Positions 276-44,658 are shown, counted from the first letter of the stretch. The stretch is DNA of 64,000 nt from Candidatus Dojkabacteria bacterium (GCA_030583825.1 CP129477.1:843627-907626), one strand, 5' to 3'. The notes: generated by a model not told the origin, from the sequence alone. Translations and numbers: made by a program.

Positions 276-2108
276 TTACTTTGCTTCGGCTTCGCCGCAT
301 GTCTCTGCGATGAGTATTTTTGCTTCTTCTGTTTCATAGGTAATACCTCCGGGAGTATGCTCATTAAGTTGTGAAATAATCTGGCAGGCCCGTTCTTTTG
401 TGTTTCCTTGTATTGTATCAGTTATGAACATAATTTTAGGAACAGTACCATCTGTTCCTTCGACAACAAAATCAACATGAGGAGTGGTACAAGGCTCACC
501 ATCGCAAGTGGGGATATCAATTGTTATTTTCTTTATACTATCCAAAGGAATACTCATGTAACCGTTGATAAATCGGTCATTATGGATACCCCATAGGGTA
601 TCTCCGGAAATACTCAAAAACTGTGTAATAAATAGTACGAATAGTGCCGTTGCTGCAAGCCAAACACTGATACCGGCAAGTACTACTAATGCGAGATAAC
701 GAATCATTTGTGGCAATCCACTTCGCTGAGCAAGCGTAAATAATGATTTTATCGCAATTCCCGTGTACCACAGCATACCGGTAAGAAGTATGCTAATAAA
801 AAAGTATCCTAGTGCAAACGATGGAGTTAATACTTCGCTAATAACAGTGTTACTTTGCGAGACAAATATGCCGTATGCAAGTGGCATGGTATACGACGCG
901 AGGCCAATAATTCCGGCAACAATGACAACTAATTGTGCGAGCGGATCTTTTTTTACAGTCTTGTTTTTGAGCTTTTGTGCATGGAAGTAATACTTTAATT
1001 TGTTCTGCCAGGAAAGCTTCTGGTAATAATTTTGCAAAAGTACCTGTTGCGAGAACTCTGTGACCAAGTTATGGGCAAGAAACGCCTTTTCATACTCGCT
1101 TCGTAGTGATGCTCGAGGCTCGCTTGCGTTCAGTGTTACAAACGTTTCAAACCCTCGCGTATATGACCCTGTTTTCGAGAACTTTCGAATAGTTTTTACC
1201 TCTGGATACAGCAAGAATCGTGATTTTTCTTTTTTGAAAAGTTCCAACAGCTCAACAAGAATTTGCTCCGATGATGCCGGATCCGGCGAGTTTATTAGGT
1301 ACAATGCAAGGTCAGCGAGAAGTAATTGTGATATTTCGTGAGAGACTGGTAATTCCGAGAAGAATGGCGCAATATCAACAAGAATCGTGTGAAGCGGCAA
1401 TAGATCAATATACGAAGAAGAAAAGCTTTTATAATACAAAATGAGCTTAAAAGTGAGTAATGCTTTAAGGTGGGAGTCTTCCAAGCTAAGCAAAATATCC
1501 AATGCCGGGCGTATAATTTTTGCCACTCTTTCCTGAGTATTCTGATTAACTCGTTTTAGCTGTGCAATATACGCGGAATAGGCAAAGATACGAAATTGTT
1601 CTGGGAGCTCAGTGATTTTAGAGAGTACACTGTCTATATCGGTATCATTGGCAATCGAGTTGAGTAATGCGTTTTCCTGCGTAAATGAGGCCGTTCGTGA
1701 CTCTACAAGCACTGCAACTGCTTGCTCCAGATCTTCTGAATTTTCTACGGAGATATCGCGTTGCAAATAGAGGTCTTTTATTGTGAACTCGCCAATTTTT
1801 GCGTAGATACTTGTAAGTGTGTGATGGATAACTTCTTCTAAAGAAATGTATTGAGCGATTTTATATTCAAATTCAAGAGAAAATGCGTCAAGAAAGAGGT
1901 GGTTATCATGGACTTTTGCGTAAACATCGAGGAACCCTACAGCTTCCTGCCTTTTGGGTTCAAGTTGCCACATGATTGCAAATGCCCGGGTATTAGGGTT
2001 ATACACGACTTGCAGAGGGAGTGAAAAATACTCCGAGGGAACGGATACGCTACGCAAGGGGACTCTTTTCTTTGGAATAATGAAGTAAAACATATTCAAG
2101 TATAGCAT
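276..2108 (-). CDS. hypothetical membrane protein (610 aa) with a C-terminal cluster of transmembrane helices and a Cys-rich tail; it sits downstream of the Bat-like operon
   Basis: Long ORF. Hydrophobic segments at the C-terminal end (ALVVLAGISVWLAATALFVLFI; IIGLASYTMPLAYGIF). No recognisable catalytic motif. It has the same orientation as the upstream Bat-like genes and follows them after a ~190 nt gap. Confidence 0.4.
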   Translation of the reverse strand: MLYLNMFYFIIPKKRVPLRSVSVPSEYFSLPLQVVYNPNTRAFAIMWQLEPKRQEAVGFLDVYAKVHDNHLFLDAFSLEFEYKIAQYISLEEVIHHTLTSIYAKIGEFTIKDLYLQRDISVENSEDLEQAVAVLVESRTASFTQENALLNSIANDTDIDSVLSKITELPEQFRIFAYSAYIAQLKRVNQNTQERVAKIIRPALDILLSLEDSHLKALLTFKLILYYKSFSSSYIDLLPLHTILVDIAPFFSELPVSHEISQLLLADLALYLINSPDPASSEQILVELLELFKKEKSRFLLYPEVKTIRKFSKTGSYTRGFETFVTLNASEPRASLRSEYEKAFLAHNLVTEFSQQVLLQNYYQKLSWQNKLKYYFHAQKLKNKTVKKDPLAQLVVIVAGIIGLASYTMPLAYGIFVSQSNTVISEVLTPSFALGYFFISILLTGMLWYTGIAIKSLFTLAQRSGLPQMIRYLALVVLAGISVWLAATALFVLFITQFLSISGDTLWGIHNDRFINGYMSIPLDSIKKITIDIPTCDGEPCTTPHVDFVVEGTDGTVPKIMFITDTIQGNTKERACQIISQLNEHTPGGITYETEEAKILIAETCGEAEAK

Positions 2109-5409: not shown

Positions 5410-6314
5410 CTTTTTTTAGTATGCGCAAATTTACTGTAATACGCAATTACTTGTTGCAGCAAATCTTTTGTCACAGAAATCGGCATATACGGGACATGTG
5501 ACTTTTCGAATAACTCTATTGCCTGTTTTACAATGTCAGTGCTGGATTTTTCCTTTTCTTCGGGGAGGAGCATTTCTCCTGTCTCGATATCTTGGAATAC
5601 AAAAGGCATGAATTCTGCATCTGACACTGGATCAGGTGCCACTAGATGGACAATTGTTACGTCATGCTTTTTGTTTAGCGTTTTGAATGTATCAATACTC
5701 TCTTTTGTAATGTCCAATGCATCGGTGATTAAAAAGCAATATGTTTTTTTCTTTACTCCCTGCAATAAGATCTTCTTTAAAAGCTCGTGACTGGTTTGCT
5801 GAAAGTAGTTATGCTCAAATGCCTTTGCGACGGTGTTTACGATTTGTCGTGCATGTTGCTTTCCTTTTGCAAAAGGAACTACTTCTTGGACAGCGCTGTT
5901 ATAAAATACTGCTCCAAACGAATCATTATGTTGCATTGCCGCGTACGTCATAAGTGTGACAAAATCGGTAATAACATTAATTTTTTGATCATTATTTCGC
6001 GACGAAATACCCACTGACGATGATGTATCAATGACAAATAGCAACGTAATTTCTTTTTGCTCTCGAAACTGCCGAATATACACTTTCTGAGTTCGTGCCG
6101 TTGCGTTCCAGTCAATGTCTCGCACATTATCACCTGCGACATATTCGCGAAGGTCTTGTAACTCGACGCCGTGTCCTCTGTATAAAGAAGAATATGCTCC
6201 CATAAGCAACGAAACTATTTGTTTTCGGGGAGAGATTTTCAAACGTTTTAGGCTTTTTAGATATTCCGCCATATTAGGATTATGGTACTGGGATTTTTTC
6301 AAAAATCTTGTCAA
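5406..6314 (-). CDS. DUF58 family protein (VWA-like, MoxR-associated)
   Basis: The VYIRQFREQKEITLLFVIDTSSSVG motif is typical of DUF58. It lies immediately downstream of the MoxR ATPase and overlaps it. Confidence 0.55.
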   Translation of the reverse strand: MTRFLKKSQYHNPNMAEYLKSLKRLKISPRKQIVSLLMGAYSSLYRGHGVELQDLREYVAGDNVRDIDWNATARTQKVYIRQFREQKEITLLFVIDTSSSVGISSRNNDQKINVITDFVTLMTYAAMQHNDSFGAVFYNSAVQEVVPFAKGKQHARQIVNTVAKAFEHNYFQQTSHELLKKILLQGVKKKTYCFLITDALDITKESIDTFKTLNKKHDVTIVHLVAPDPVSDAEFMPFVFQDIETGEMLLPEEKEKSSTDIVKQAIELFEKSHVPYMPISVTKDLLQQVIAYYSKFAHTKKR

Positions 6315-7280: not shown

Positions 7281-7880
7281 TTAAGTATTCGATGTAAATT
7301 TCTTTTTATACTCTTCTGTGCAAGCACTAAGAACTTTATGTGCTTCTTCAATTCCGCCCCATCCTTCGATTACAATCTTTTTGTCGGTTTTGCCTTTATA
7401 TTTAAATTGCAAATCTTTGTAGTGCTCAAAAAAGTACTGAATTTCGTCTCTTCGCAGTCTTGGAATGTCATCAACAGTTTGAATGTGGTCAAATCGCGCA
7501 TCGTCTGCTGGTACAACAACAATCTTGCTATCTTTTTCTCCGCTGTCGTTCATGTACATAATACCGATAATTCGGCCTGCAATAAGACATCCTGGGAAAG
7601 TTGGGTATGTCATAAGCGCGATAACATCAAGCATATCTTCGTCTTCGTCCCATGTTTGAGGGATTAGTCCATACTCTACCGGATACGGAAGCATTTCGTA
7701 CAAAACGCGGTCAAGCTTGATAATACCTGCTTCTGTAACGTATTCGTATTTGTTAAACGATCCCTGTGGAATTTCTACAAGCATGTTTACATTGCCATCT
7801 TTGTCGAGAGGGTTAAGAATGTGCTGAGCATTTGGAGTGAACTTCATAAAGTCCTGGCCAAGAGATTTAATATTTGCCAT
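7281..7880 (-). CDS. ppa: inorganic pyrophosphatase (family I)
   Basis: YEYVTEAGIIKLDRVLY and DEDEDMLDVIALM resemble the acidic metal-binding cluster of soluble PPases. Size ~199 aa. Confidence 0.65.
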   Translation of the reverse strand: MANIKSLGQDFMKFTPNAQHILNPLDKDGNVNMLVEIPQGSFNKYEYVTEAGIIKLDRVLYEMLPYPVEYGLIPQTWDEDEDMLDVIALMTYPTFPGCLIAGRIIGIMYMNDSGEKDSKIVVVPADDARFDHIQTVDDIPRLRRDEIQYFFEHYKDLQFKYKGKTDKKIVIEGWGGIEEAHKVLSACTEEYKKKFTSNT

Positions 7881-7984
7881 GAATAACTAATCAATTTTAA
7901 GTATCTCTCTAATAATACTGAATTTTACGCCAAAAGTGAATATTGGGCATTATATGTTATTAAGTGGAATTTATCCTATAGTTA

Positions 7985-7993
7985 TGCTATAAT
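7985..7993 (+). promoter_or_regulatory. extended -10 element (TGcTATAAT) upstream of the 8035 small ORF
   Basis: The sequence tgctataat lies ~40 nt upstream of an AAGGAG-type RBS and the ATG at 8035. Confidence 0.4.
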
Positions 7994-8034
7994 AATGCAT
8001 TGTTCTGTGCTTTAGCACTTTAAGGAGAATTGAA

Positions 8035-8286
8035 ATGTCTGACAAAAAGATCGTGCAAACTCTGAGCAAACTCGAAAAGCTGCCTCGCTCTGTTGCGGAG
8101 GACTTACTACTCGAATATGTGACTGAGGTAGACGATATACATTCAAGAAAGAACATGCTGTTAACACAGCGACTAAGCTCGCTAGAGCATAGTACAGGTC
8201 TTCTTTCTTACGTATTAAGTTGTCTAATGATCTACTCTCTTGGGTTGACCGCTGTTGTGGTGGTAACTCTCATCTCAATACTCTAA
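8035..8286 (+). CDS. small hypothetical protein (83 aa) with a C-terminal transmembrane anchor
   Basis: Good RBS (aaggagaattgaaATG). The C-terminus LLSYVLSCLMIYSLGLTAVVVVTLISIL is hydrophobic. Confidence 0.3.
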   Translation: MSDKKIVQTLSKLEKLPRSVAEDLLLEYVTEVDDIHSRKNMLLTQRLSSLEHSTGLLSYVLSCLMIYSLGLTAVVVVTLISIL

Positions 8287-8484
8287 ACTTTCATCGCGCG
8301 GACAAAGGACACTCTTTTTTTAGCCTCACCTTTGTCACGCAACAAGCCTTTTCAACCAATAAAACAAGTTCCCTATCATAACTGTTACATATTTTTGTCC
8401 TCACTGTAAAAGTAGATAAAGATCTATAGTCGTGAGATAATTCGTTTAGTATTCTGTGCTTAATGCACTTGAAAAAGGACGGTT

Positions 8485-8736
8485 ATGCCTGTTGACATGC
8501 GCGAAGCGCGCCTCGTTGCCGAGTTTGAGCTTGCAGCTCAGAAATTAAATACCGCGAAAAACCTTGACCCTAACGGGTGGATGTTTCGTGAGTACATTAC
8601 GGCAAAGGAACGTCTGGATGATTATCGTTGGCTGAAAAAAATGCACCGGCAGATTTGGGTTCTCTCAGTCTACTGTGTTGCGATTTCTTTCGTTGTTGCC
8701 ATTCTGACTATCATTCTTCTGCATAAGTTGGGCTAA
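8485..8736 (+). CDS. small hypothetical protein (83 aa) with a C-terminal transmembrane anchor
   Basis: RBS aaaaggacggttATG. The C-terminus IWVLSVYCVAISFVVAILTIILL is hydrophobic. Same size and architecture as the 8035 ORF. Confidence 0.3.
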   Translation: MPVDMREARLVAEFELAAQKLNTAKNLDPNGWMFREYITAKERLDDYRWLKKMHRQIWVLSVYCVAISFVVAILTIILLHKLG

Positions 8737-9097
8737 ACAAACAAAAACCCCGTCCACGAGCTGACAAAGGCCAAAAACCCAATATTATATTTTCGCCTTT
8801 TGCGAACTTTATAAAACTTTTTTGGAGCTCCACTTTGTCTGCCTCACCGCCTTTTTTCGATAACACAAAATTGCTGCAAAATTTCCAAGAATCACTATTG
8901 AGTGGTATAATTCACTATGACTTTTATTCAAGTCACACATTGTTTTCATTTCCATCCCCGCTCGTAGGGGAACTTTTTCACGACTACATATTTTTCGCGT
9001 ATACTTGTGTAATTCGTTGCGCGTAAAATTCGTAAATATTTAAATAGTGAGCAAATGCTCATTGCCAAGGCTAAAAATTAATTTAAAAAATATAAAA

Positions 9098-10422: not shown

Positions 10423-11061
10423 TTACTGAAAAAGTCCAGGCTTCTGCTTGATGAATACAAGCGATTCGGGGGCAAACCTTACAACGTTTGATTCAGTTCC
10501 GGGAATAGTATTGGCTTTTGTTGTTATCATGTCTTCGCCGTCTACAAGAAAGTTAAACTCGTAAATTGCGCCTGTTCTTAGAAAAGACTTAAAACTGAAT
10601 TGGTTACTTTCGAATTTTCCTTCCTGGAGCTTGTATCGGACATTTAGCTCGTCCGGCTTCATAGAGGTGACTGTTCTGCGAAGAGAGGCATCCTGAGTGA
10701 TGAATACGGTGTTTTTGTATGTAAAGTCCAAATTTGCGTGTAAGCCATTTCTGCTGTCGAAAATGCTAAGCTTACAAGTTCCTTCGATTTTTGCGATAGA
10801 GATACTGTCTTTTAGGAGTGTATATGAGCAAATTTTGTTTTCATCTGTGACCCAAGTGCCGGAAAGTGGCCCACCTGTATTAAATGTAAATGATGCACTT
10901 AAATTTTCTCCCCATTCTTTGAGCGGTGAAGGTAAAATCGGTGCAGATGCCATAAATGCAAAAGTTCCCACAATGATGACGATTACAAAGATTGCAAACC
11001 CTTTGAGAAATTTTATAAACCACCAGTCACTTAGTTTTTGTGCTGAGACAGCAGTGTCCAT
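10423..11061 (-). CDS. hypothetical membrane-anchored (probably extracytoplasmic) protein
   Basis: N-terminal TM helix FAIFVIVIIVGTFAFMASAPIL followed by a ~170 aa domain with no known motif. Confidence 0.35.
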   Translation of the reverse strand: MDTAVSAQKLSDWWFIKFLKGFAIFVIVIIVGTFAFMASAPILPSPLKEWGENLSASFTFNTGGPLSGTWVTDENKICSYTLLKDSISIAKIEGTCKLSIFDSRNGLHANLDFTYKNTVFITQDASLRRTVTSMKPDELNVRYKLQEGKFESNQFSFKSFLRTGAIYEFNFLVDGEDMITTKANTIPGTESNVVRFAPESLVFIKQKPGLFQ

Positions 11062-11164
11062 AAACCATTATAGCATCTCATTGGATTTCGTCATGTCGTA
11101 TGGATATCGCACCTTTTTTCTTACATTTTATTGCGGGAAAAGTTTTCTTATAGGAGAAAACTCA

Positions 11165-11698
11165 TTAAACAAACAATGTTTTTGCGTCTGATGGGGTTGT
11201 AAAGATCTTCATATCTTCTGTCCAGTTTGCAACGAATTCTTCGATATTTCTTTGGTAGGTCATATAGAACTGAACAAAGCGATCTTTATCAAAATCTCCG
11301 GTGTATGATGCAGAAAATGTCACGCGACCTGTTCTTTCATCTGGCTGGAATACTGTGAGTTTTATAAGCGCTTCGTCGAGGTTTCTGTCATTTATGAATG
11401 AGAAGAACTGCACTTTTCTTTCAGGAGAATCGAGGTAGTACGTTTCCGGCGAAAGAAAATCAACGCTAAGAATAAATGTATCTTCAAGAATATGATATTC
11501 ATGTCCCACGCTAAGGTCAGATACCAACAATGCGATCATTCCATCTTCGCTATGACGTACTTCCACTTCACATTTAAGAGTTTCGAGGAGTTCTTTTACT
11601 GAGGATAATCTTGCAGAAATCATGTGACAAAGGATTAATTTATAAAAACTAGCTTTTCGTGTGGATGTAAGAGCTGACGTTTGGTTAATGTAGCACAA
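11165..11698 (-). CDS. hypothetical protein
   Basis: ORF only. A hairpin AGTTTTC-N8-GAAAACT lies just 3' of the stop on the minus strand (11131-11152). Confidence 0.3.
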   Translation of the reverse strand: MCYINQTSALTSTRKASFYKLILCHMISARLSSVKELLETLKCEVEVRHSEDGMIALLVSDLSVGHEYHILEDTFILSVDFLSPETYYLDSPERKVQFFSFINDRNLDEALIKLTVFQPDERTGRVTFSASYTGDFDKDRFVQFYMTYQRNIEEFVANWTEDMKIFTTPSDAKTLFV

Positions 11699-11756
11699 TT
11701 CTTGGATGGAACGAAACTTTTTAAAACAGTTCTTGTTTTGAAAAGATGAGTGACTA

Positions 11757-11828
11757 TCCAGAGGATAGGATTTGAACCTATGACCAAGAGTTTTACAGAC
11801 TCCTGCTCTACCGCTGAGCTACCTCTGG
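11757..11828 (-). tRNA. tRNA, anticodon apparently GUA (Tyr) but with a short (type I) variable loop
   Basis: The reverse complement folds as a cloverleaf: acceptor CCAGAGG/CCTCTGG, U8, D stem GCTC/GAGC, anticodon stem GGAGT/ACTCT with loop CUGUAAA (U33, A37), variable loop UGGUC, T arm ATAGG-TTCAAAT-CCTAT, discriminator A. 72 nt, no encoded CCA. Confidence 0.6.
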
Positions 11829-11900
11829 ATGACGTATTTTACGATGGATGGAGGCTTTTGTAAAGATTATTCAGTAAGTGTCCTCATTAGTAGAACGCTT

Positions 11901-12248
11901 TTATATCTTTTCAGGACTTGGTGAGTCGGTTAAATCGCTTTCAAATAAAAATGAGATATTTCCATCCGGGTAAATGAGCACTAATCCATTTGTATCTCTC
12001 TGTGCGGCTTCCTCCAGGAATCCTTCTAATTGAGACGTTGGTTTTGTTTCTGCTGCTGCTCCAAGAACTTGTCCTACAAGAATATTTGTAGTTTCATCAT
12101 AAGACAATGAGTCAAAAAGCTGTACTTTAATCGTTCCCATATCTACTGTGGGCAATGCCGGAATTATAGGATCTGCTGTGCTTTCTGGATCATGAATTTG
12201 TTCAATCCATTCATTAAATTGTTCTATCGGTTCTTGAGAACTCATCAT
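11901..12248 (-). CDS. small, highly acidic hypothetical protein (115 aa)
   Basis: Its start is 2 nt after the stop of the upstream 362-aa ORF. Very D/E-rich and no TM helix. Immunity-protein or chaperone-like partner architecture. Confidence 0.35.
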   Translation of the reverse strand: MMSSQEPIEQFNEWIEQIHDPESTADPIIPALPTVDMGTIKVQLFDSLSYDETTNILVGQVLGAAAETKPTSQLEGFLEEAAQRDTNGLVLIYPDGNISFLFESDLTDSPSPEKI

Positions 12249-12250
12249 AA

Positions 12251-13339
12251 TTATTTCATAAAGTTATTTGGGGGCATGGTCACTATCCTTAAGGATGTTG
12301 GCGCGTCGCGTCCTTCTAGTCCATTACTGTCAATTCCCATTAATTTTACAGCACTGTCATAATGCCTGGATTCTAATCGTCCTTCTTCCTCGGCTTGGAG
12401 TGCTATACTTTGAGCTTGCGTGTGTTTATTTCTTCCATTTTGAATAACTGGCAAATGACATTCTGTAACGCTGCTTCCAGTCTTGGTGTCAATATAAATG
12501 ACTTCATCTCCTTTTTTGGCAATTAAGTCTACTCCTGATAAGTCTTCTGTCCCTGATTTTGTAACGCTAACATCATATCCTTGCTCTCTAAAATAAACAT
12601 ATGCTGAAAATTCGGCAAGAATAGATTCTCTTCTCTGTGCTGCCTCTGCTCTATGTAACGGTGGGACAATATGATTTATCATACTGGTAATTGCACGTTC
12701 AATCTCCTGCATTGTTGCTTTACGGTTAGGCTGACCGGCATTGTCTGGAATATATATCTTCTCATACATTGTAATACATGTTCCAAGCATATTTCTTTGA
12801 AACTCAGAGGCTATTTCAACAGCAACTGCTCGGTCTGAAGAAGAAAGTCGAGGATCTCTGATACCACTATATCTTTCATTTACTAAGGCTTTTGCATTGG
12901 GATTATTAGAGAATTCTTTTCCGGACTTCATGGCCCTGTTCATTGAGCGCCAAACGTCTATTACTGCCGGCGGGTAATGGTCGTTTATAACGAAAATTGT
13001 TTCTCCTTCCTCGTTTTGTTTTTCTTCAACTACCGAAACTCTTTGCTTTACTACAGATTGCAGAGCAGCCTTTTGTTCCGGCTTCAATTTTTTACGTTTT
13101 TTAGGAGGTTCAGTCTCATTTGTTGTTTCTGATTCTGCAGCAATAACTTTCAAATCTCTCAGAAATAGGTCAAATGATGTTAATCCTTGACCTTGTGACT
13201 CCTTTAAGCGATTACTATACGCTTTATTTCTGTCTAAAGTATCGTTAACAGTGTGAAACTCATTGATAGTTCCTTCCTGGACAGGTGTTGTGGCTGGGGT
13301 TTCCCATTCTGGCATAGATAAAGTGTACGCAAATGCCAA
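12251..13339 (-). CDS. hypothetical protein (362 aa) with a basic KKRKK patch and a possible C-terminal PD-(D/E)xK-like segment
   Basis: No canonical motif. The C-terminal GVDLIAKKGDEVIYIDTKTG could be a degenerate D...(D/E)xK nuclease core, which is speculative. PPKKRKKLKPEQK is a basic stretch. Confidence 0.4.
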   Translation of the reverse strand: MAFAYTLSMPEWETPATTPVQEGTINEFHTVNDTLDRNKAYSNRLKESQGQGLTSFDLFLRDLKVIAAESETTNETEPPKKRKKLKPEQKAALQSVVKQRVSVVEEKQNEEGETIFVINDHYPPAVIDVWRSMNRAMKSGKEFSNNPNAKALVNERYSGIRDPRLSSSDRAVAVEIASEFQRNMLGTCITMYEKIYIPDNAGQPNRKATMQEIERAITSMINHIVPPLHRAEAAQRRESILAEFSAYVYFREQGYDVSVTKSGTEDLSGVDLIAKKGDEVIYIDTKTGSSVTECHLPVIQNGRNKHTQAQSIALQAEEEGRLESRHYDSAVKLMGIDSNGLEGRDAPTSLRIVTMPPNNFMK

Positions 13340-13352
13340 TGATATGTCAAAA

Positions 13353-13918: not shown

Positions 13919-14998
13919 CTACAAATATATCACGGTACTTGGGTCTTTCTCAAGTTGTGCAAGAAATTCCTTTAGTTTTGTATTGTCATTTTTGTGGAAA
14001 ATAGCGACAACATCTTTGGTGTTAACAACGACAAAGCCCTTTAACCCAATGGTAACCACAAGCTTGTCCGCTTCTGTATTGTAAATGAGTGTATCTTCTG
14101 ATCCCATATCTTTTGCAGGGCCAATAGCAACGTTGCTTTCGGGGGAAGATTCTAATGTCTCTTTAAGTGCAATCCATTCTCCAATATCGCTCCAGCCAAT
14201 ATCTGCAAGCAAAACTCGAGCATCTTCTGGTTTCAAGTACTCAGCATACGCATAGTCTGCGGAGATTTTTTCCAGCTTAGAAAATTTCTCACATGATTCT
14301 TCTGAAAAATCTGACTCAACCATTTCTGTAACCACATCGTAGATTTCTCTTGCACTGTCTTTGTAGCCTTTTAGAAAATCTTGACCAAAGGCTGCCCAAT
14401 ATCCTGGATTCCAACCATATGTTCCTGCGGCAATATACTCTTTAGCTACTTCCATTGTTGGCTTTTCTACGAACCGTTCAAACTCCGCAAGCTTTATTTG
14501 TCCACCATACTGTGAGTCAAGAACTTTTCCAAAATGAATATATCCTCTATGTGGTGAAGGAAACCGCGCGGGAACTGCCAAAAATACTGTTTTCTTTTCT
14601 TGCTTTACGACCTCTTCTGCTTTTTTGATTGCAGTAATAAATGCAATTGGATCTTTTATGTGGTGATCTGTCCACTGTGTCATGATGACTTCATCTGGAA
14701 ACATTTTTGTAACATATGCAATAGCAAGTCCCACTGCAGGGCCTGTATCGCGCATCATTGGCTCGGCAATGATATTTTCTTTAGGGAGCTCAGGAATAAT
14801 CTGTTCAACTTCGTGACGATACTGTTGCCCAAGGCTGACAAATATATCACTTGCAGGAAATGCTTCGCGAAGCAAATCGTAGCGAATTCGCAACAATGGC
14901 TTATCTTCAATAATAGCGAGGAACTGTTTTGGCGACTTCACACGACTGACTGGCCAAAAACGTTTTCCTGTTCCTCCTGCAAAAAGAATAATTTTCAT
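13919..14998 (-). CDS. sugar-phosphate nucleotidyltransferase, mannose-1-phosphate guanylyltransferase-like
   Basis: The N-terminus MKIILFAGGTGKRFWPVSRVKSPKQF matches the GGxGxRLWPLSR signature of ManC/CpsB-type nucleotidyltransferases. Confidence 0.65.
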   Translation of the reverse strand: MKIILFAGGTGKRFWPVSRVKSPKQFLAIIEDKPLLRIRYDLLREAFPASDIFVSLGQQYRHEVEQIIPELPKENIIAEPMMRDTGPAVGLAIAYVTKMFPDEVIMTQWTDHHIKDPIAFITAIKKAEEVVKQEKKTVFLAVPARFPSPHRGYIHFGKVLDSQYGGQIKLAEFERFVEKPTMEVAKEYIAAGTYGWNPGYWAAFGQDFLKGYKDSAREIYDVVTEMVESDFSEESCEKFSKLEKISADYAYAEYLKPEDARVLLADIGWSDIGEWIALKETLESSPESNVAIGPAKDMGSEDTLIYNTEADKLVVTIGLKGFVVVNTKDVVAIFHKNDNTKLKEFLAQLEKDPSTVIYL

Positions 14999-15001
14999 GT
15001 C

Positions 15002-15718
15002 CTAAGTATTTAATTTATTTAAGTGTTCGTACATAAGTTTCCCAGCACTTCTTAAATTTATAACTGCGTTCTGTATGTGCTGGTCTTCTGCAAACCCTGC
15101 CATGAAATAAAATGAATCCTCATGTACGAGAATCCCGGTATTTCCTACTGTATAAATTCCTTCTTCTTTTGTCATTCCTGTTTTTGAAGTGACGAGTGAC
15201 GTAGGCAATTGATCGAATAAATAGAAAATATTGATGGAATTTTTTCCTATAAAAAAATCCTTTAGCTTTTTATTTGTCCATATATATTGATAGAGCATAA
15301 AACAGTCGCGTAATGTCAGCTTATTCTCATTTATTTTATTATCAATAAAGCTAATATGGGCTGACTTCATTCCAATTCGTCCAATTTCTTGTGTTATTTT
15401 GTGTCTTTCGGGAAAAAATATATCAAGGAGAACCTTCGTTGAAGAATTGCAACTATATATGAGCATAAGGTTTAAAAGACTTTCTACAGAAATTTCGTGA
15501 GTATCCTTGTGCATAAATAGTTTAGGAAGGACATCAGTTCCATACCCGGCAAGTTGATCTTTTGAAATAGTAAGAATTTGCGAAAAATCGGCAGTCTCTG
15601 CGATTAGTGCGGCATATAGGGTTTTTGTAAGGCTGGCTGCTTCGAATAGTGTGTCTGCGTAGTGAGAAAGTAAGATATCTTGAGAATCTATGTTAGCGAG
15701 AAGGTAGCCTCGTGTCAT
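15002..15718 (-). CDS. serine-type D-Ala-D-Ala carboxypeptidase / class-A beta-lactamase-like protein (penicillin-recognising fold)
   Basis: All three active-site motifs are present in order: SLTK (SxxK), SCN (SxN), KTG (KTGMT). Size 238 aa. Confidence 0.55.
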   Translation of the reverse strand: MTRGYLLANIDSQDILLSHYADTLFEAASLTKTLYAALIAETADFSQILTISKDQLAGYGTDVLPKLFMHKDTHEISVESLLNLMLIYSCNSSTKVLLDIFFPERHKITQEIGRIGMKSAHISFIDNKINENKLTLRDCFMLYQYIWTNKKLKDFFIGKNSINIFYLFDQLPTSLVTSKTGMTKEEGIYTVGNTGILVHEDSFYFMAGFAEDQHIQNAVINLRSAGKLMYEHLNKLNT

Positions 15719-16965
15719 TCAATTATTGGCGCAATATAAATTCCTGTTCCTGCGTTTATTTTACCATTTGCTTGCGAGAGTTGTGTAGGAGTGCAACCAT
15801 ACATTTCGTAAGATACCTTCACACCGCCATCAGGCATAATGACACCTGTTGTTCTATATAATGTTGTAACAGTTGTCTCTACTCCCTGATACAGAACTCT
15901 TTCCTGTGAAGGATTTATATGTTGTTGAAATATATAACTGCCTCCATCTGTTGTGAGACTACGCATTAATTCGCGGACATTCTCTGCTCCTGAATTTGTT
16001 TTTCCTTCAATTATTTCTGCTGCTGCAGCGTTACTTCCGCACAATGCATTAAGAATTGCGTCTCTCTGCCACTTTCGTACATTTGTTAGGTTTACAACTA
16101 ATGAAAACCCATCTTTTCCTTCATACTTTAGCCACGGGAATTGCACGGGGTCAACGGTAGAAGCATCGTTTCTTGTTAGTGGCATGATATCAGGCTGTTG
16201 TTCCTGTAGTTGCCTAAGAAACTTTCTATATCCAAAAAATGGTGCAGATAAACTATTTAATACGTGAACATCTTCTCTTTCCTGACAATAATCTAGCATC
16301 ATTTGAGAACCATCGGAGTATAAAAATGTTTTACTATTACAACATCGAAATAATATATCTGGGTAGAATCCTTCCTCTAATAACTGTCCAAAGCCTTGAA
16401 TGTCGGTATATGCTGTATCAATTCCGGCCTGGGCCATTCTTCTTGCGAGGTATTCATGAGATCTCCAAAACGCGTTTTTTCTACTTCCAATTACTGCAGC
16501 AGATTGCACACCCGACGATTGGAATCTTTCTGTTAAATGCGCAACAAAATCGTCGTTATGAGCACTGCCAATGCTTTCTGCTCGAGGACGTTGTAAAAAT
16601 GATTGATTATTGGGGTTGATTTCAATGACGTAGAACCTGCCATCTTCTCCTTTCACTAAATCTAGTCCAAAATATGTTATTGCGCTGTTGGTTGTACTAT
16701 CAAAATTGATGACGTCACGTGCATAATGCGGTTCTACCCCTACACCTTCGGCAAATTCAGGAGAAATAGTTGTCTGCTCTATTACTTTTGCTACTTTTGT
16801 GGTTATATCATCAAGCTGTACTCTATCGTGTTCAGGAATAATAACGGGACTTTCTGCAATAAGTGTTGGTTGCTCTTTACCTTCTGGCCCAAAAATCATG
16901 TAATCGGGTTGAGCTTCTGTACCTACTTGATGCGCAACGAATAATTTCTTATCCATCTCCCCCAA
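15715..16965 (-). CDS. hypothetical protein, possibly a (circularly permuted?) ATP-grasp-like enzyme
   Basis: FYVIEINPNNQSF resembles the ATP-grasp Mg-binding hhE(I/V)N motif but sits near the N-terminus. Overlaps the downstream peptidase gene by 4 nt. Confidence 0.3.
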   Translation of the reverse strand: MGEMDKKLFVAHQVGTEAQPDYMIFGPEGKEQPTLIAESPVIIPEHDRVQLDDITTKVAKVIEQTTISPEFAEGVGVEPHYARDVINFDSTTNSAITYFGLDLVKGEDGRFYVIEINPNNQSFLQRPRAESIGSAHNDDFVAHLTERFQSSGVQSAAVIGSRKNAFWRSHEYLARRMAQAGIDTAYTDIQGFGQLLEEGFYPDILFRCCNSKTFLYSDGSQMMLDYCQEREDVHVLNSLSAPFFGYRKFLRQLQEQQPDIMPLTRNDASTVDPVQFPWLKYEGKDGFSLVVNLTNVRKWQRDAILNALCGSNAAAAEIIEGKTNSGAENVRELMRSLTTDGGSYIFQQHINPSQERVLYQGVETTVTTLYRTTGVIMPDGGVKVSYEMYGCTPTQLSQANGKINAGTGIYIAPIIE

Positions 16966-19082: not shown

Positions 19083-19598
19083 TTACTGTGGCAATTCAAG
19101 CCGATAGATTTTGTCGCGGGATGAACCGAATACGGCAAAGTCAGGCATGAAGCCAGAAATCTCACGCACAGTGACTGTTTCAGGAAAGGTGCGTGTGCCA
19201 CGTCCAAGAATCATGTTTCGGAATGTTATTTCTCCATCAAGGGTGAAAATGGGTTGAACGCGATATTCGCTCCATATTTCTAACTGCAATGAGGCAGCCG
19301 AAGCTAATTCTCGTCCGCAACCATCGGAGAAGCACCATACCTCTGCAAAACTCGTATGCAGTGAAAGTGGTTCAGATGGAGTTGTTACTATTAAATGGTA
19401 AACGATTAAAAACTTTCCTTCCTGAGGAATACCATTCACCACTAGCGTTGCGTGATTTTCTAGGCGCAATGTACCGCCGTAAAAAACGCGTGTAGTCGGC
19501 GTTTCAGCCTGAAGCGGAGCCTCTGCCTGCACGGGAATAAAACCTATGCTTAGCATTAGCACGATAAAAACGAGGACGGCTTTCCTCAAATCAAACAT
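19083..19598 (-). CDS. hypothetical secreted protein
   Basis: N-terminal signal peptide-like segment MFDLRKAVLVFIVLMLSIGFIPVQAEA. Confidence 0.35.
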   Translation of the reverse strand: MFDLRKAVLVFIVLMLSIGFIPVQAEAPLQAETPTTRVFYGGTLRLENHATLVVNGIPQEGKFLIVYHLIVTTPSEPLSLHTSFAEVWCFSDGCGRELASAASLQLEIWSEYRVQPIFTLDGEITFRNMILGRGTRTFPETVTVREISGFMPDFAVFGSSRDKIYRLELPQ

Positions 19599-25137: not shown

Positions 25138-26745
25138 ATGGCAGATATGCAATCTTTAGAAACTAAGTCGGCACAACCGGTGCAAAACAATATAGGTGAC
25201 CTCGAAGGTATTTTAGAGGCGCGTCCTCCTTTAGGAAATCGCCATTCTTCTTCACGAAAACCCAACGAAGCCGCAACACTCAACTATTTTGACCTGAACA
25301 ATGAAGAGGCTCGTGAGCGAGCCTTACACATACAGGAATCACTCCGCAGGCAACATTTCCATAAAGTCCACACAATGTACGAAGCATTTGAGACAGAACC
25401 AGGTGCTGTAAACGCTTTGAGACGAGATACTGTTAATAACATTGCTGCAATGCAGTGGTTTCCTAGGCACTCTCAAGAAGCACAAGAATACTTCGAGGAG
25501 ATGGTTCCAGACGAAGATCTTCGTAAACAAATTCAGCTTCATTACAGTGAATTCTTCACATATGTTCATAGAGAAGTCGCCCGAGCAGTACTTTCGCCTC
25601 GAAAGTGTGAAACAATGTTTGCCGACAAAGGACTCTTGAGCAGAATTAGAAAGAACCTTCCAGCGCATCTTATTCCTGCTGCAGAAGAACTCACAGAACA
25701 GCTTATTGATGACTACTATCAACAGCTAAACAACCTCATTGACGAAGAAAAGCTCGCAAAATATGAACAAAATGTTTGTTACGAGCTAGATTGGTACGAT
25801 GATGGCTATAGCCTACACAAGAGAAAAAGAAATATTATTTTGCTTAACGGCCCAGTTGGCTCAGGAAAAGGAACGACGCTTGAACAATTAGAAGCTGAAG
25901 CTGTAGAAACAGGAACTGCCGGTATTGCCGGACGTGGTGGACAATCAAAAGAAAAACGCGATAAATTAGAAGGTGGCCCAAACAGATACGATCGTTGGGA
26001 ATATGTTTCCGGCGGACTTGACCGTTCACGCAAAAAGCAGAGACGAATTCCTGACCGCGTTATGCGTATGTGGCTTGCAATGGAACTTATGCAAAAGCGT
26101 GGAGAGCTTGATGCAGAAGGAAAATTCGACGAGCCTATTTATATCTCGGGTTATCCTCGCGAGGTTGATCAAACAAAACTCTTTGCGCATCTTGACCAGG
26201 AGCAAGTTGTTTCTGTGTATATGGAAATTTCTGAACAGGAAGCAGCAACGCGAACGCTAAGCCGCATGATTGAGCAAAGTGTCGCAACTGCAATGGATGC
26301 AAGAGCTATTGAAAATGCTGAGCTTTCTCGTGCAGAAAAAGATGCAAGACTTGCAAAGTTGGAATATTACCGCGGAGATGACTTTAAATCTTTGGACTTT
26401 TCAAATGCTCCAGAAGTTAGACAGATGATCTTGCGGTTTAATAAAGACATGCTTGCTGCGTTGCAAATCGTAGATCCACACGGGAAAATAGAGTTGAAAA
26501 AACTACAGGAAAAAATTAAAAAAGCAATTTTTGAGAATCACAAGGCAGCGATTGAACAGCTATTGCTGGCACGTGGAGACGAAGGTCATAAAGGAGAAGC
26601 TCGATATCACCTCGACATGCGCAACAAAAGGTCTATTATTGAAGCATCCGAGTCAATGGGTATTGAAACAATTATCGTTCAATGTGACGGTAAAGCCCCA
26701 CCGCAGGTAACTGAAGAAGTGGCACAATATGTCCGCGCAGCCTAA
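25138..26745 (+). CDS. hypothetical protein (535 aa) with an embedded adenylate/NMP-kinase-like P-loop domain
   Basis: NIILLNGPVGSGKGTTLEQLEAE is an NMP-kinase-type P-loop. Then VSGGLDRSRKK (compare AK ISTGDMLR) and PIYISGYPREVDQTKLF (compare AK GFLLDGFPRT). These are flanked by a ~230-aa N-terminal and ~170-aa C-terminal extension with no recognisable motifs. Confidence 0.45.
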   Translation: MADMQSLETKSAQPVQNNIGDLEGILEARPPLGNRHSSSRKPNEAATLNYFDLNNEEARERALHIQESLRRQHFHKVHTMYEAFETEPGAVNALRRDTVNNIAAMQWFPRHSQEAQEYFEEMVPDEDLRKQIQLHYSEFFTYVHREVARAVLSPRKCETMFADKGLLSRIRKNLPAHLIPAAEELTEQLIDDYYQQLNNLIDEEKLAKYEQNVCYELDWYDDGYSLHKRKRNIILLNGPVGSGKGTTLEQLEAEAVETGTAGIAGRGGQSKEKRDKLEGGPNRYDRWEYVSGGLDRSRKKQRRIPDRVMRMWLAMELMQKRGELDAEGKFDEPIYISGYPREVDQTKLFAHLDQEQVVSVYMEISEQEAATRTLSRMIEQSVATAMDARAIENAELSRAEKDARLAKLEYYRGDDFKSLDFSNAPEVRQMILRFNKDMLAALQIVDPHGKIELKKLQEKIKKAIFENHKAAIEQLLLARGDEGHKGEARYHLDMRNKRSIIEASESMGIETIIVQCDGKAPPQVTEEVAQYVRAA

Positions 26746-27547
26746 AGACACCGAAATTCGGTATTACCACCCTCCTGAGAAAGACTTTGAGCCGGTTGCT
26801 CTTGGACGCGAAGTTTTGCCGGGTGGAAAATTCGCAATAATTACGACTGTAGAATGTCCAGAAGAAGTGAAAGACACAATTCGCGCCAATGCCGATGAGA
26901 ACGAAGGAATGTTTCTCGCAGGTGATTTTATTGGCTCAGCATCCCGTCGAGTTGTAACCCGATTAAACTCACGCGAAGAAAGACCCCATGCAATCGCTGT
27001 TGTAAAAAGAAAAGCACAAGTGCCGCAGGATGGATATATGCGAAGGTTCACAACTTTCAGCTTAGTTAACGAGATTAGAATGGCCCATGCTACCAATGAT
27101 ATTATTGATGCAGAAGGATTGCGTGACTATTCCGTAATGTATCAGGATCAAGAAGTTGATATTCAGTTTGACGTGCAAGTGCCTTTTGGTGGTGTATATG
27201 GAATTACCCCGGAAACCCGAAATCAGCGTTATGGATTGTTTCAGTTTCATTCTGGAACTTCTGTCCGCGATGAAGTGGCAATGTCTTACGGGTGGAATCA
27301 CCTCACACAGGAAGAACGTTTGCTCTATGGAAACCTTTTTCATGGACAGTTAACAAATCTTCATGTCGCGGCTGCTTCAAAATACGGGATTTATACACAT
27401 GATTTAGGAGTTCACCAGCTATTGTATAACGAATCACGTAACGATGGAAAAACAAAGTACCAACTCACGATTCTTGATACTGAAGAATTTTACCCTTGTG
27501 AGCCTTTTGTTCCAGGTGGACTGTTTCCTGTTATATGTTTTCTTTAG
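26729..27547 (+). CDS. hypothetical protein (272 aa), translationally coupled to the upstream kinase-like gene
   Basis: Its start overlaps the upstream stop by 17 nt. No recognisable motif. FHGQLTNLHV...LTILDTEEF has a faint resemblance to the catalytic loop/DFG region of a kinase-like fold, which is weak. Confidence 0.4.
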   Translation: MSAQPKDTEIRYYHPPEKDFEPVALGREVLPGGKFAIITTVECPEEVKDTIRANADENEGMFLAGDFIGSASRRVVTRLNSREERPHAIAVVKRKAQVPQDGYMRRFTTFSLVNEIRMAHATNDIIDAEGLRDYSVMYQDQEVDIQFDVQVPFGGVYGITPETRNQRYGLFQFHSGTSVRDEVAMSYGWNHLTQEERLLYGNLFHGQLTNLHVAAASKYGIYTHDLGVHQLLYNESRNDGKTKYQLTILDTEEFYPCEPFVPGGLFPVICFL

Positions 27548-39161: not shown

Positions 39162-41015
39162 ATGGCACTGCCCTACACCGGTGTTGATTTGCGATTGCTG
39201 AATGCCCTTGTGCAACAGGGAAAGCTTACAAATGAGCAAGCTGAAGCCCTAAAACTCGAGTCTGCGCAGCAAAGTAAGTCTGAAATAACACTGATACTTG
39301 AAAAAAATTTACTCTCCGAAACGGATGTTTATAGAGTCAAGGCACAAATTTATAATGTGCCTTTCATTGAGGATATTAGCGGTGTCACTGTTCCCCAGGA
39401 AGTTCTTACCGGCTTAAACGTTGATACGCTCAAAGAGCAAATGGCTTTCCCATTTGAAATCACTGAGCAAAAAGTAAAAGTATTGATGGCTGACCCGTTC
39501 AACGTGGGTGCTATTCAATTCTGGCGTGTCCGATATATTCCAAGACAAATCGAAGTGTACACGTCTACTCCATCGGTAGTCGCGTCGTTTGTTAACACAA
39601 AATTTGGAAACTTAATCGGGGGCGAGGTCGCCTCTGCTGTATCATCATATAAACAAGATGCCGGGCAATCTGGTATTGACGAAACTGTCATTAGTGAAGG
39701 TGGCGATCTTGGTACAGATTTGCAAAGCGCTCCTGTCGCAAAAATAGTTAACACAATATTGGTATATGGTGCTCGTGTAGGCGCATCAGATATCCATATT
39801 GAACCGCAGGAAAACTCTATTCGTGTGCGATACCGTATTGATGGTGTTATGCAGGAAAGAATGAATTTGCCAAAAGATTTGCAAGCGCCAATTGTGGCAC
39901 GTATCAAAATTCTTTCAAACCTTAAAATTGACGAAACTCGTCTTCCGCAAGACGGTCGTATCTTTATCAAAGTAGATAATCGAAGCTTCGACTTACGTGT
40001 ATCAACACTTCCTGCAATTCAGGGTGAAAAAACAGTAATGCGTTTGCTTGAGCGTACGACAGGTATTCCTCCATTGGAAGAGTCAGGTCTTCGCGGCTCT
40101 GCATATCGAAAATATCTTGAAACAATTAAGCTTACGAACGGAATCATTCTGATTACTGGGCCGACAGGTTCAGGTAAAACGCGTACACTTGCTTCGACGC
40201 TCTCACGAATGAACGATCCAAAGGTAAACATTATTACCATTGAAGATCCGGTTGAAATTCGTGTTGGCGGTATTAACCAGGTTCAGATTCACCACGAAAT
40301 TGGACTTGACTTTGCGACAGTACTTCGTGCGGTATTGCGACAAGACCCGAATATCATCATGGTTGGTGAAATTCGTGACGGCGAAACTGCGACATTGGCT
40401 ATTCGTGCTGCATTGACTGGTCACTTGGTTCTTTCTACTTTACACACAAACTCTGCGGTAGCAGCGCTTACTCGTTTGACTGATATGGGAATTGAATCAT
40501 ACTTGGTTTCTTCAACAGTAAAAATGGTTGTTGCACAGCGTCTTGTGAGAACTGTGTGTCCATACTGCCGTGAGCCATATGCTGCATCTCCAAGTGATGT
40601 CGAAGAACTACAGGAGCAATTCAAATCTATTCAAAATTTTGACATGTTTTCATATTTAGAAGCGTTGGCACAGAAAAATGGAAACCCTCCGAATGACTCT
40701 GTTGAGTTTAAATTTGCTCCTCCTGTAAAAGCTCCTGAAACATTACCGGATGGAACAAAGCAAATGTATCTGTACAAAGGAAAAGGTTGCTCTCGTTGTG
40801 GTGAAAGCGGATATAAAGGTCGTATGGCTATCTTCGAAGTCATTTCTATTACTCCACGGTTGGGTGAGGCCATCACTCAGAATGTTCCGTACGACGTATT
40901 GCAGAAAATTGCAGTTGAAGAAGGAATGATTACGATGTACCAGGACGGTTTCTTAAAAGCAATTGAAGGAATTACCTCTATGGCTGAGGTTATGAGGGTT
41001 GCGAAAAGTGAATAA
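39162..41015 (+). CDS. pilB: type IV pilus assembly ATPase PilB (GspE family)
   Basis: GSPII_E N-terminal domain. Walker A ILITGPTGSGKTRTLAS, Asp box, His box TGHLVLSTLHTN, and a tetracysteine CPYC...CSRC zinc motif. Confidence 0.85.
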   Translation: MALPYTGVDLRLLNALVQQGKLTNEQAEALKLESAQQSKSEITLILEKNLLSETDVYRVKAQIYNVPFIEDISGVTVPQEVLTGLNVDTLKEQMAFPFEITEQKVKVLMADPFNVGAIQFWRVRYIPRQIEVYTSTPSVVASFVNTKFGNLIGGEVASAVSSYKQDAGQSGIDETVISEGGDLGTDLQSAPVAKIVNTILVYGARVGASDIHIEPQENSIRVRYRIDGVMQERMNLPKDLQAPIVARIKILSNLKIDETRLPQDGRIFIKVDNRSFDLRVSTLPAIQGEKTVMRLLERTTGIPPLEESGLRGSAYRKYLETIKLTNGIILITGPTGSGKTRTLASTLSRMNDPKVNIITIEDPVEIRVGGINQVQIHHEIGLDFATVLRAVLRQDPNIIMVGEIRDGETATLAIRAALTGHLVLSTLHTNSAVAALTRLTDMGIESYLVSSTVKMVVAQRLVRTVCPYCREPYAASPSDVEELQEQFKSIQNFDMFSYLEALAQKNGNPPNDSVEFKFAPPVKAPETLPDGTKQMYLYKGKGCSRCGESGYKGRMAIFEVISITPRLGEAITQNVPYDVLQKIAVEEGMITMYQDGFLKAIEGITSMAEVMRVAKSE

Positions 41016-41035
41016 ATTGGATACTATTTGATTAC

Positions 41036-42469
41036 ATGGATGGAAACGCCCCCGTGACTCCAAATGTCACGCAAAATTCAGACTTTTCGGTGTCCCAATT
41101 TGCCGGTGCTCCGGCTGCATCACCTTCGATTCCTAGTGCACCTATGCCAATGCCGGGAACATCGGATATGAACGCGAATGTTTCACAAAATATGCCTCAA
41201 ATGCCTCCTGCACCGCAAGTTGCACAGTCGTTTGCACCACCGACATTACCCCCTATGCCACAAGTACCCGCATCTCCGACCGTGGAACAGCAGATTCAAG
41301 ACGTTTCACAACTACCTCCACTTCCGCAAACACCTCAAAACAATGTTTCACAGCCTGCAGCAGCTGCAGCCTCGGCACCTATGGTTCAAGTTGTAGATTC
41401 TGTCAGCGGTGACATGAGTATTTTTCAGATGCTTGAGCTTGTTGCATCAAAAAACGCATCTGACTTACACCTTGTTGTTGGTTATCCTGCAATGCTTCGT
41501 ATTGATGGCGATCTTGTGAATATTTCCAGCACAATTGTCTCTCCGGATATGGCCAAGAAACTTGTATATGATGTCCTTCCTGACGATAAAAAAGAACAGC
41601 TTGAAGTAAATCGTGAAGTTGACCTTGCATATGGATACGAAGGAATTGGACGTTTTCGTATTAACGCATATTATCAGCGTGGATATATTTCTGCAGCATT
41701 TCGTTTGATTCCTACACGTATTAGGACATTAGACGAATTGAAAGTTCCCGCTATTTTTAAAGAATTTGCAGAGCTTGAGCAAGGATTGGTATTGGTAACC
41801 GGCCCGACAGGTCACGGAAAATCAACAACGTTGGCAGGTATTATTCAACAAATTAACGATACTCATCCAAAGCACATTCTGACTATTGAAGATCCAATTG
41901 AATACGTATTTCCACAATCAAAAGCGTTAGTTTCTCAGCGTGAGCTTGGCGACGATACTCATTCATGGAAAGGTGCACTTCGTGCAGCACTTCGTGAAGA
42001 CCCAGATGTCGTACTCGTTGGTGAAATGCGTGACTATGAAACAGTTAACTCTGCAATCACTGTTGCAGAAACAGGTCACTTGGTTCTTGCAACACTTCAC
42101 ACGAACAATGCAGCTCAAACAATTCAGCGTATTATTAACGTTTTTCCCGATGTTCAGCAGGAAGAAGTCCGCGCACAGCTTGCAGACATTCTTGAAGTTG
42201 TTGTCGCGCAGCGATTGATTCCTATTAAAGGTGGTGGACGTCGTGCAGCCGTTGAAATCATGTTGATGACTCCGGCAATTAGAAACCTTATTCGTGAAAA
42301 TAAGATCTTCCAAATTGACAATGTTATTCGTACAAGTCTTGATCTGGGAATGATCACCTTAGAGCGCTCATTATTGAATATGTTCCGTGAAGGATTAATT
42401 GATAGAGAAGATGCATTGCGATATGCACTCGATGCATCAGAAATGCAGCGATTAATTAATGAAGGTTAA
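41036..42469 (+). CDS. pilT: PilT-like pilus retraction ATPase with a ~120-aa Pro/Gln/Ala-rich disordered N-terminal extension
   Basis: VLVTGPTGHGKSTTLA, VLVGEMRDYETV and GHLVLATLHTNNAAQTIQRI are PilT motifs. The N-terminus is low-complexity (PQMPPAPQVAQSFAPPTLPPMPQVPASP). Confidence 0.8.
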   Translation: MDGNAPVTPNVTQNSDFSVSQFAGAPAASPSIPSAPMPMPGTSDMNANVSQNMPQMPPAPQVAQSFAPPTLPPMPQVPASPTVEQQIQDVSQLPPLPQTPQNNVSQPAAAAASAPMVQVVDSVSGDMSIFQMLELVASKNASDLHLVVGYPAMLRIDGDLVNISSTIVSPDMAKKLVYDVLPDDKKEQLEVNREVDLAYGYEGIGRFRINAYYQRGYISAAFRLIPTRIRTLDELKVPAIFKEFAELEQGLVLVTGPTGHGKSTTLAGIIQQINDTHPKHILTIEDPIEYVFPQSKALVSQRELGDDTHSWKGALRAALREDPDVVLVGEMRDYETVNSAITVAETGHLVLATLHTNNAAQTIQRIINVFPDVQQEEVRAQLADILEVVVAQRLIPIKGGGRRAAVEIMLMTPAIRNLIRENKIFQIDNVIRTSLDLGMITLERSLLNMFREGLIDREDALRYALDASEMQRLINEG

Positions 42470-42492
42470 ATTTAATTATTAATGAAATAGCT

Positions 42493-43881: not shown

Positions 43882-43920
43882 ACTAGAATGAAATAACTTA
43901 ATTAATATTGCCCTTTTACC

Positions 43921-44517: not shown

Positions 44518-44564
44518 CGCGTCGTTCAGATTTATCGAGACTACGCGTCTCTCAAAATCCTTAC

Positions 44565-44612: not shown

Positions 44613-44658
44613 TTTATTATCTCTTGCGACAATTCCCAATAACTGACACAATCACTGT

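Follow-up and report, generated by a model that had tools for sequence, protein, structure and literature searches.

A stretch of 64,000 nucleotides (nt) from a Candidatus Dojkabacteria bacterium (GCA_030583825.1 CP129477.1:843627-907626; hereafter the window) contains, directly beside a tRNA gene, two tightly spaced genes that encode a large protein and a small, very acidic one. The locus raises the question of whether this pair is a toxin and its antidote, delivered to the tRNA by a mobile element, or a resident operon of the chromosome. The window is part of the core chromosome of a metagenome-assembled genome of this Candidate Phyla Radiation (CPR) lineage and encodes housekeeping functions together with a type IV pilus cluster. 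The interpretation that we favor, and to which we give about an even chance, is that the pair is a clade-restricted, vertically inherited chromosomal operon that encodes a YraN/Hjc-type nuclease and an acidic partner, the likeliest role of which is inhibitory.

The large gene spans positions 12251..13315 on the minus strand and ends with a TAA stop codon at 12253-12251. The small partner gene (11901..12248, minus strand), which encodes 115 amino acids (aa), begins with the ATG at 12248, 2 nt (TT) past that stop codon. The tRNA-Tyr(GTA) gene (11756..11829, minus strand; detected by ARAGORN, Rfam score of 73.4 bits) follows on the same strand, 71 nt downstream of the small gene. The initial annotation described open reading frames (ORFs) of 362 aa and 115 aa separated by 2 nt and adjoining a tRNA, all of which are present in the sequence. 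The 362-aa ORF (12251..13339, minus strand) opens with a TTG at 13339, whereas the gene itself very probably starts at Met9, the ATG at 13315, and encodes 354 aa. This start was chosen because the NCBI annotation and both homologues begin there (MPEWE / MIEE) and because a promoter-like site overlaps the TTG; the longer reading (13316-13339) probably overextends the gene by 8 codons. NCBI entry WKZ29923.1 (354 aa, locus QY314_03885, on a contig of 1.09 Mb) has the same sequence as the large protein, and the small ORF is also annotated by NCBI, as QY314_03880. Unless stated otherwise, residues are numbered according to the 354-aa form. By sequence comparison both ORFs are genuine, maintained genes, since they are paired in two further genomes and their nonsynonymous divergence (dN) is well under the saturated synonymous divergence (dS).

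Relatives of the two proteins are few. A word-indexed search of 5.8 billion clusters returned one non-self relative for each, P0002 (47% identity) for the large protein and P0004 (68% identity) for the small one. Exhaustive searching of 1.84 billion representatives (~ 15 billion proteins) with HMMER added a second, distant homologue of the large protein over its full length, P0006, with 388 aa, an E-value of 3e-26 and 26-30% identity, and also returned a fragment of P0002. The scanned metagenome contigs, viral contigs, phage genomes and plasmids yielded no relatives of the pair. As judged from these searches the family is very rare, with members in three lineages of a small Dojkabacteria group.

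Residues 222-354 of the large protein (12254..12652, minus strand) form a putative YraN/Hjc-like PD-(D/E)xK domain. In the AlphaFold2 model computed from the three homologous sequences (mean predicted local distance difference test score (pLDDT) of 73, predicted template modeling score of 0.76, pLDDT of 80-93 over residues 160-350), helix α1 is followed by three to four β-strands, an α-helix, an inserted α-helix and a β-strand, which is the order expected for the fold. The catalytic candidates located by alignment are D263 (12527-12529), D276 (12488-12490) and K278 (12482-12484), all on the minus strand, as well as E235. The first three are invariant in all three homologues despite sequence identities of 26-47%. 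The C-terminal segment GVDLIAKKGDEVIYIDTKTG had been proposed in the initial annotation as a possible degenerate PD-(D/E)xK core, and the invariant D...DxK pattern bears this out. Together, the alignment and the predicted model support the assignment of the C-terminal segment as a PD-(D/E)xK nuclease core.

The nearest family is YraN (UPF0102) by every method employed. NCBIfam YraN models match residues 232-328 in the numbering of the 362-aa form, with an E-value of 4.9e-6, and the top sequence match in the Protein Data Bank (PDB) is the UPF0102 structure 3fov, with an E-value of 0.13 for the single sequence and 0.008 for the three-sequence profile. The sole match outside the family in the exhaustive HMMER search is an ordinary 122-aa YraN protein (E-value of 2e-4). 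Alignment with 23 diverse YraN sequences by hhalign yielded a probability of 90.6% and an E-value of 1.3e-6 over the region from α1 to β3. The shared core places the α1 Glu, the β2 Asp (GVDLIA versus GEVDFIA) and the β3 acid-x-Lys (IDTK versus VEVK) in register, and can be written as the motif G-x-D-[LF]-I-A-x-K-x-x-x-[VI]-x-[FY]-[IV]-[DE]-x-K. Archaeal Holliday junction resolvases Hjc/Hje (PF01870; 1ob8) and the AHJR-like, Mrr_cat and NERD families have the same minimal restriction-endonuclease-like fold and catalytic layout. There is no significant sequence match to these proteins, from which the pair also differs in domain architecture and by the presence of a partner gene. A weak match to Mrr_cat was obtained for the corresponding domain of P0002 (E-value of 0.011). 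A Foldseek comparison with viral protein models (BFVD) returned no significant match, and its list was dominated by restriction enzymes, Holliday junction resolvases and VRR-NUC proteins. Two other hits, PglZ in PADLOC (E-value of 0.016) and BrxF in NCBIfam (E-value of 0.21), were far below any threshold and were set aside.

The similarity to YraN suggests another interpretation, which we regard as unlikely, namely that the large protein is the working YraN of this clade, an N-terminally enlarged endonuclease for single-stranded DNA and D-loops that works together with the ComM helicase during natural transformation, with the acidic protein as an adaptor or regulator. Type IV pili are often linked to DNA uptake, and genes for such a pilus are present in the same window (PilB, PilT-like, PilC, pilin and PilD; 39162-45426), where no stand-alone YraN was found; moreover, the large gene is vertically inherited within a core region. 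YraN itself has been reported to be a PD-(D/E)xK endonuclease of single-stranded DNA and D-loops that is needed for chromosomal integration of transforming DNA and that interacts with ComM (bioRxiv 10.1101/2024.02.06.579203). Nonetheless, Pfam gave no match to the full protein at an E-value of up to 1, nor to the isolated domain at up to 10, PF02021 included, and the best NCBIfam YraN model scored 26.9 bits against a cut-off of 124. In the columns that are invariant among the 23 YraN sequences, the Glu of GE-x-D and the Arg after ExK are both replaced by Gly in the large protein, and the RFD strand motif is neither aligned nor conserved. YraN proteins are ~ 120 aa long (102-135 aa in the sequences collected) and have been described as single-domain proteins that carry no other domain (bioRxiv 10.1101/2024.02.06.579203), whereas the large protein is extended by 220 helical residues at its N terminus, has an additional helix preceding the final strand and is accompanied by a dedicated acidic partner gene. 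YraN is also nearly universal, in contrast to the three lineages seen here, and a core recombination factor is not expected to be so restricted or to outpace all of its neighbors in evolutionary rate. Finally, the window represents 6% of the genome, and a canonical YraN may be encoded elsewhere. The statement of the initial annotation that the protein belongs to no recognizable family holds for Pfam and for PADLOC, which gave no family match, but not for NCBIfam. On these grounds, the large protein is a divergent member of the PD-(D/E)xK superfamily that stems from its YraN/Hjc-like branch, and no curated criterion makes it a YraN.

The N-terminal 220 residues of the large protein are α-helical and conserved over their full length in all three homologues. 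Within them, residues 66-150 (12866..13120, minus strand), delimited by segment charge, make up the sole basic segment of the protein, with an isoelectric point (pI) of 9.5-9.8 in all three homologues, and are a candidate nucleic-acid-binding module. The KKRKK patch pointed out in the initial annotation is located here; its KKRK portion (codons 72-75, within 13088-13102) is an invariant arm in the three homologues, and the segment also contains a conserved YpP-V--vW motif. Residues ~ 70-130 follow a homeodomain-like pattern, consisting of the basic arm, an EQK--L helix and a V--VW--NR helix. The only PDB profile match for the N-terminal segment is the ZF-HD structure 1wh5 (E-value of 0.074), one homologue matches HTH_32 (E-value of 0.11), and the AlphaFold2 model, the confidence of which is low in this stretch, does not predict helix 2. 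The homeodomain-like resemblance is only a lead.

The small protein contains 21 Asp and Glu residues and 4 Lys and Arg residues, which corresponds to a pI of 4.05 and a net charge of -17. Its maximum Kyte-Doolittle hydropathy (19-residue window) is 0.97, such that no transmembrane helix is predicted and the protein is expected to be soluble, in agreement with the initial description of a very acidic partner free of transmembrane helices. The three versions of the partner have 106-115 aa, a pI of 4.05 in each case and net charges of -13 to -17, and share a core with the sequences MGxIxVQxFDxLSxDE and LVLxYPDG. The AlphaFold2 model is confident (pLDDT of 81) and comprises an α-helix, three β-strands, a second α-helix and two further β-strands; because of this confidence the partner is taken to be a folded protein. 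The predicted fold has no significant neighbor in the PDB, and a profile of the three sequences matched nothing in the PDB or Pfam. The junction between the large and small genes is equally tight in each genome, with a 2-nt gap in the window, a 4-nt gap in the locus that encodes P0002 (L001) and a 14-nt overlap in the locus that encodes P0006 (L017). Since both the coupling and the extreme acidity are conserved, it is likely that the partner physically pairs with the nuclease. The most economical guess is that it has an inhibitory or regulatory role.

These elements can be assembled into a proposed mechanism, in which the large protein is soluble. Its basic stretch of residues 66-150, which includes the KKRK arm, most likely binds nucleic acid and sets the substrate preference of the nuclease. 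The C-terminal 130 residues would act as an endonuclease with an intact metal-binding and catalytic set consisting of D263, D276-x-K278 and usually E235. Its substrate would be DNA, and the process served is probably recombination, repair or the processing of incoming DNA. The second gene is translationally coupled to the first. Its product is most likely synthesized concurrently with the nuclease and bound to it as an obligate partner; its likeliest action would be to restrain the nuclease by covering either the active site or the basic stretch that would contact DNA. A more far-reaching version, which we consider distinctly unlikely, would make the pair a previously undescribed nuclease system specific to this CPR lineage. 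In it, an endonuclease derived from YraN would have acquired a DNA-targeting domain of its own and an acidic subunit of new fold, obligate and possibly a DNA-mimic inhibitor, and would replace or supplement the canonical YraN/resolvase step when incoming DNA is recombined in these ultra-small bacteria.

Domains of the PD-(D/E)xK fold have in some cases lost their activity and been put to another use, and the large protein might accordingly be a non-catalytic DNA-binding or regulatory protein that has retained a nuclease-like fold, next to an unrelated small gene. The absence of the Glu that is invariant in the GE-x-D of YraN, and the replacement of the α1 Glu by Gln in P0006, would fit such a protein. 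However, the D, D-x-K core is invariant while overall identity drops to 26-30%, and the retention of the gene coupling in three genomes argues for a functional pair. We therefore consider inactivation very unlikely and retain an active nuclease with a partner as the preferred reading.

Several observations weigh against that reading. The nuclease assignment depends on remote homology and on a model of mean pLDDT 73 built from three sequences, the match falls under the curated thresholds of every family, and E235 is not conserved in P0006. The large protein as a whole is not basic (pI of 5.9), and the AlphaFold2 confidence is below 50 for residues 59-113, which cover part of the putative DNA-binding segment. 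An hhalign comparison with 9 homeodomains, 1wh5 among them, gave a probability of 3% and a score of 15.9, which does not surpass the shuffled controls, the best of 30 column shuffles having scored 15.4. With regard to the partner, contact between the two proteins is a prediction, and the small one might activate or target the large one instead of inhibiting it. Lastly, the large protein evolves fastest in its block, with 47% identity to the L001 protein where GyrB has 93%.

The evolutionary history of the locus was addressed by comparison of gene order. The L001/L002 locus, whose GyrB and HisRS are 93% and 84% identical to those of the window, preserves the order of the window: GyrB, a 413-aa protein, S11 peptidase, NTP-transferase, His-phosphatase, the large gene, the small gene, tRNA-Tyr, a 152-aa gene, a 220-aa gene and a convergent HisRS. 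The more distant L017 locus (GyrB 83%, HisRS 62% identical) keeps the His-phosphatase, the large gene, the small gene, tRNA-Tyr, a 209-aa gene and HisRS. Its small gene encodes 106 aa and is 48% identical to that of the window. The pair and the tRNA form a fixed block, while the rest of the neighborhood is variable. L017 lacks the 177-aa gene that follows the tRNA in the window and, at this locus, the 416-aa and S11 peptidase genes; L001 has three genes, including TrpR, beside HisRS that are not in the window; and the genes beyond GyrB differ. The insertions and deletions among the genomes spare the pair and affect the HisRS/TrpR side, the region upstream of GyrB and the 177-aa gene. When the NTP-transferase was used as an anchor, none of 14 more distant Dojkabacteria loci (up to 59% identity) shared the neighborhood or had the pair within 10 kb, from which we conclude that synteny decays quickly.

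The initial annotation had read the adjacency to a tRNA as a sign of island insertion and had asked for a comparison with syntenic genomes. That comparison finds the pair in the same place, with the same neighbors, in L001/L002 and in L017, with no presence/absence polymorphism. Integrative islands classically occupy the 3' end of a tRNA gene, whereas the pair lies 5' of tRNA-Tyr. The window contains no second copy of the tRNA 3' end, even with up to 3 mismatches allowed, there are no meaningful flanking repeats at the locus, and no integrase or transposase was found among the scanned genes of the window. The GC content is flat, at 0.37-0.40 across 11-14 kb compared with 0.36-0.445 over the whole window. 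On synteny, tRNA side, repeats, composition and gene content, a tRNA-associated island was rejected; tRNA-Tyr is a conserved downstream neighbor of the pair and not an integration site.

The initial annotation had seen in the two genes the shape of a toxin/immunity or effector/chaperone pair. These results also bear on the proposal that they constitute a toxin–immunity, toxin–antitoxin or addiction module, in which a DNase toxin and an acidic neutralizer were brought by a mobile element at the tRNA or have since been domesticated. Colicin E9 DNase-Im9, barnase-barstar and Anabaena NucA-NuiA are nuclease–inhibitor pairs with small acidic inhibitors, and they resemble the present pair in that the nuclease gene directly adjoins, or is coupled to, one whose product is small, soluble and strongly acidic, an arrangement conserved here in three genomes. 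The resemblance is a functional analogy, as these pairs have no sequence or fold relation to either protein and the present pair lacks an export or killing context. Polymorphic-toxin Tox-REase proteins with their Imm partners and type II toxin–antitoxin systems are similar in the two-gene layout, the C-terminal restriction-endonuclease fold, fast evolution and orphan status. Both proteins of the pair are indeed orphans with a very narrow distribution, and the dN of the large gene relative to L001 is 0.48, the highest in the block, compared with 0.06 for GyrB; dN values were used as ranks alone since dS is saturated (above 1.5 or undefined). Such fast evolution suits a conflict-type (toxin or defense) gene no less than it would suit a housekeeping gene. 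However, no toxin, antitoxin, immunity or defense model was matched in Pfam, NCBIfam, PADLOC or PHROGs, and the large protein has no secretion signal, transmembrane segment or trafficking domain. The pair lacks immunity-gene arrays and a mobile context, no copies were found in the phage, plasmid, viral and metagenome scans, and its position is strictly syntenic down to 83% GyrB and 62% HisRS identity, 5' of the tRNA and without an att-like repeat, integrase or GC shift, while the true insertions and deletions between the genomes lie elsewhere. A module of this kind is in our estimation also unlikely, and vertical inheritance of a nuclease–partner operon is preferred.

The pair probably is transcribed from its own promoter. 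A scan identified a promoter-like site at 13322..13350 (minus strand; TTGACA-17-TACACT) that ends 6 nt ahead of the ATG at 13315, and the large gene of L001 has a matching layout (TTGACA-17-TAGACT-6-ATG). The position of this site implies that the pair is transcribed separately, probably as a leaderless mRNA. Similar starts appear to be common in the window. At the first-ATG starts of ORFs of at least 150 aa, a -10-like TANNNT box is located 4-9 nt upstream of the ATG in 21 of 53 genes, compared with 7% of internal ATGs, whereas Shine-Dalgarno-like motifs occur at just 2 of the 53 starts and do not exceed the internal-ATG background of 6%. Gene starts across the window thus look leaderless, for example those at 18903 (GyrB), 11061 (212-aa gene), 13916 (His-phosphatase) and 13315 (large gene). 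A second promoter-like site (11836..11864, minus strand; TTTACA-17-TAAAAT), found by the same scan, precedes tRNA-Tyr, and its elements CTTTACAA...CATCGTAAAATACGT are also present in L001 and L017; the tRNA may therefore have its own promoter, separate from that of the pair.

In L017 (5762-5987), a 51-nt inverted repeat (5777-5827 / 5924-5974; 80% complementary) encloses tRNA-Tyr (5842-5913), which is also flanked by two local hairpins, one of 21 nt (95% complementarity) and one of 19 nt (100% complementarity). These elements, which are missing from the window and L001, displace the conserved tRNA promoter ~ 150 nt upstream and could represent either small insertions of palindromic sequence or a stem used in processing. 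Of the three hypothetical genes that the initial annotation placed on the far side of the tRNA, two are credible. A 164-aa ORF on the plus strand (10697..11191) runs antisense to these two conserved genes. The first credible gene is the 177-aa ORF (11165-11698, minus strand) on the 3' side of the tRNA, which probably encodes 152 aa from Met26, the start used in L001; its product is acidic (pI of 4.6) and without a family match, and its absence from L017 makes it the one variable gene next to the tRNA. The second is the 212-aa gene (10423-11061, minus strand), which has one N-terminal transmembrane helix (Kyte-Doolittle 2.58) and no family match, and is kept in all three genomes (60% and 40% identity).

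The interval between HisRS and the pyrophosphatase (7880-9047 in the window) contains two 83-aa ORFs (8035-8286 and 8485-8736) with hydrophobic C-terminal stretches. In L001 the same interval (14034-16311) contains 173-aa, 296-aa, Trp-repressor-family and 84-aa genes, and the window has an equivalent of only the last of these (8485-8733, 70% identity); TrpR is found beside HisRS in L017 as well. On the other side of the pair, a 416-aa protein (15715-16965, minus strand) encoded between GyrB and the S11 peptidase gives a weak circularly-permuted ATP-grasp signal (E-value of 1.9e-4, below cut-off); its L001 counterpart has 62% identity, and L017 lacks it at this position. ORFs of 610, 535, 272, 236 and 171 aa, at 276-2108 (minus strand), 25138-27547 (plus strand), 45396-46106 (minus strand) and 19083-19598 (minus strand), have no Pfam match at an E-value of up to 1e-5. 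The 171-aa ORF and a 614-aa ABC-ATPase gene occupy the spot between GyrB and RsmI where L001 has other genes. The type IV pilus cluster (39162-47209) encodes a PilB-like ATPase with an MshEN domain, a second T2SSE ATPase, a PilC-like platform protein, a pilin with the N-methylation motif and a prepilin peptidase, and a further pilin-like gene is located at 46574-47209.

In practical terms the analysis is useful chiefly for a negative result: adjacency to a tRNA is not an island signature at this locus, which should not be counted as mobile or defense DNA. With three known lineages only, the expected impact of the finding is modest. If the proposed nuclease–partner operon is correct, the YraN/Hjc nuclease core would here form part of a new architecture, in a family for which functional characterization is recent and still at its beginning. 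The operon would provide a small and tractable nuclease–partner pair, and would add a partner protein with no recognized fold to the CPR/Dojkabacteria, where most lineage-specific genes are uncharacterized.

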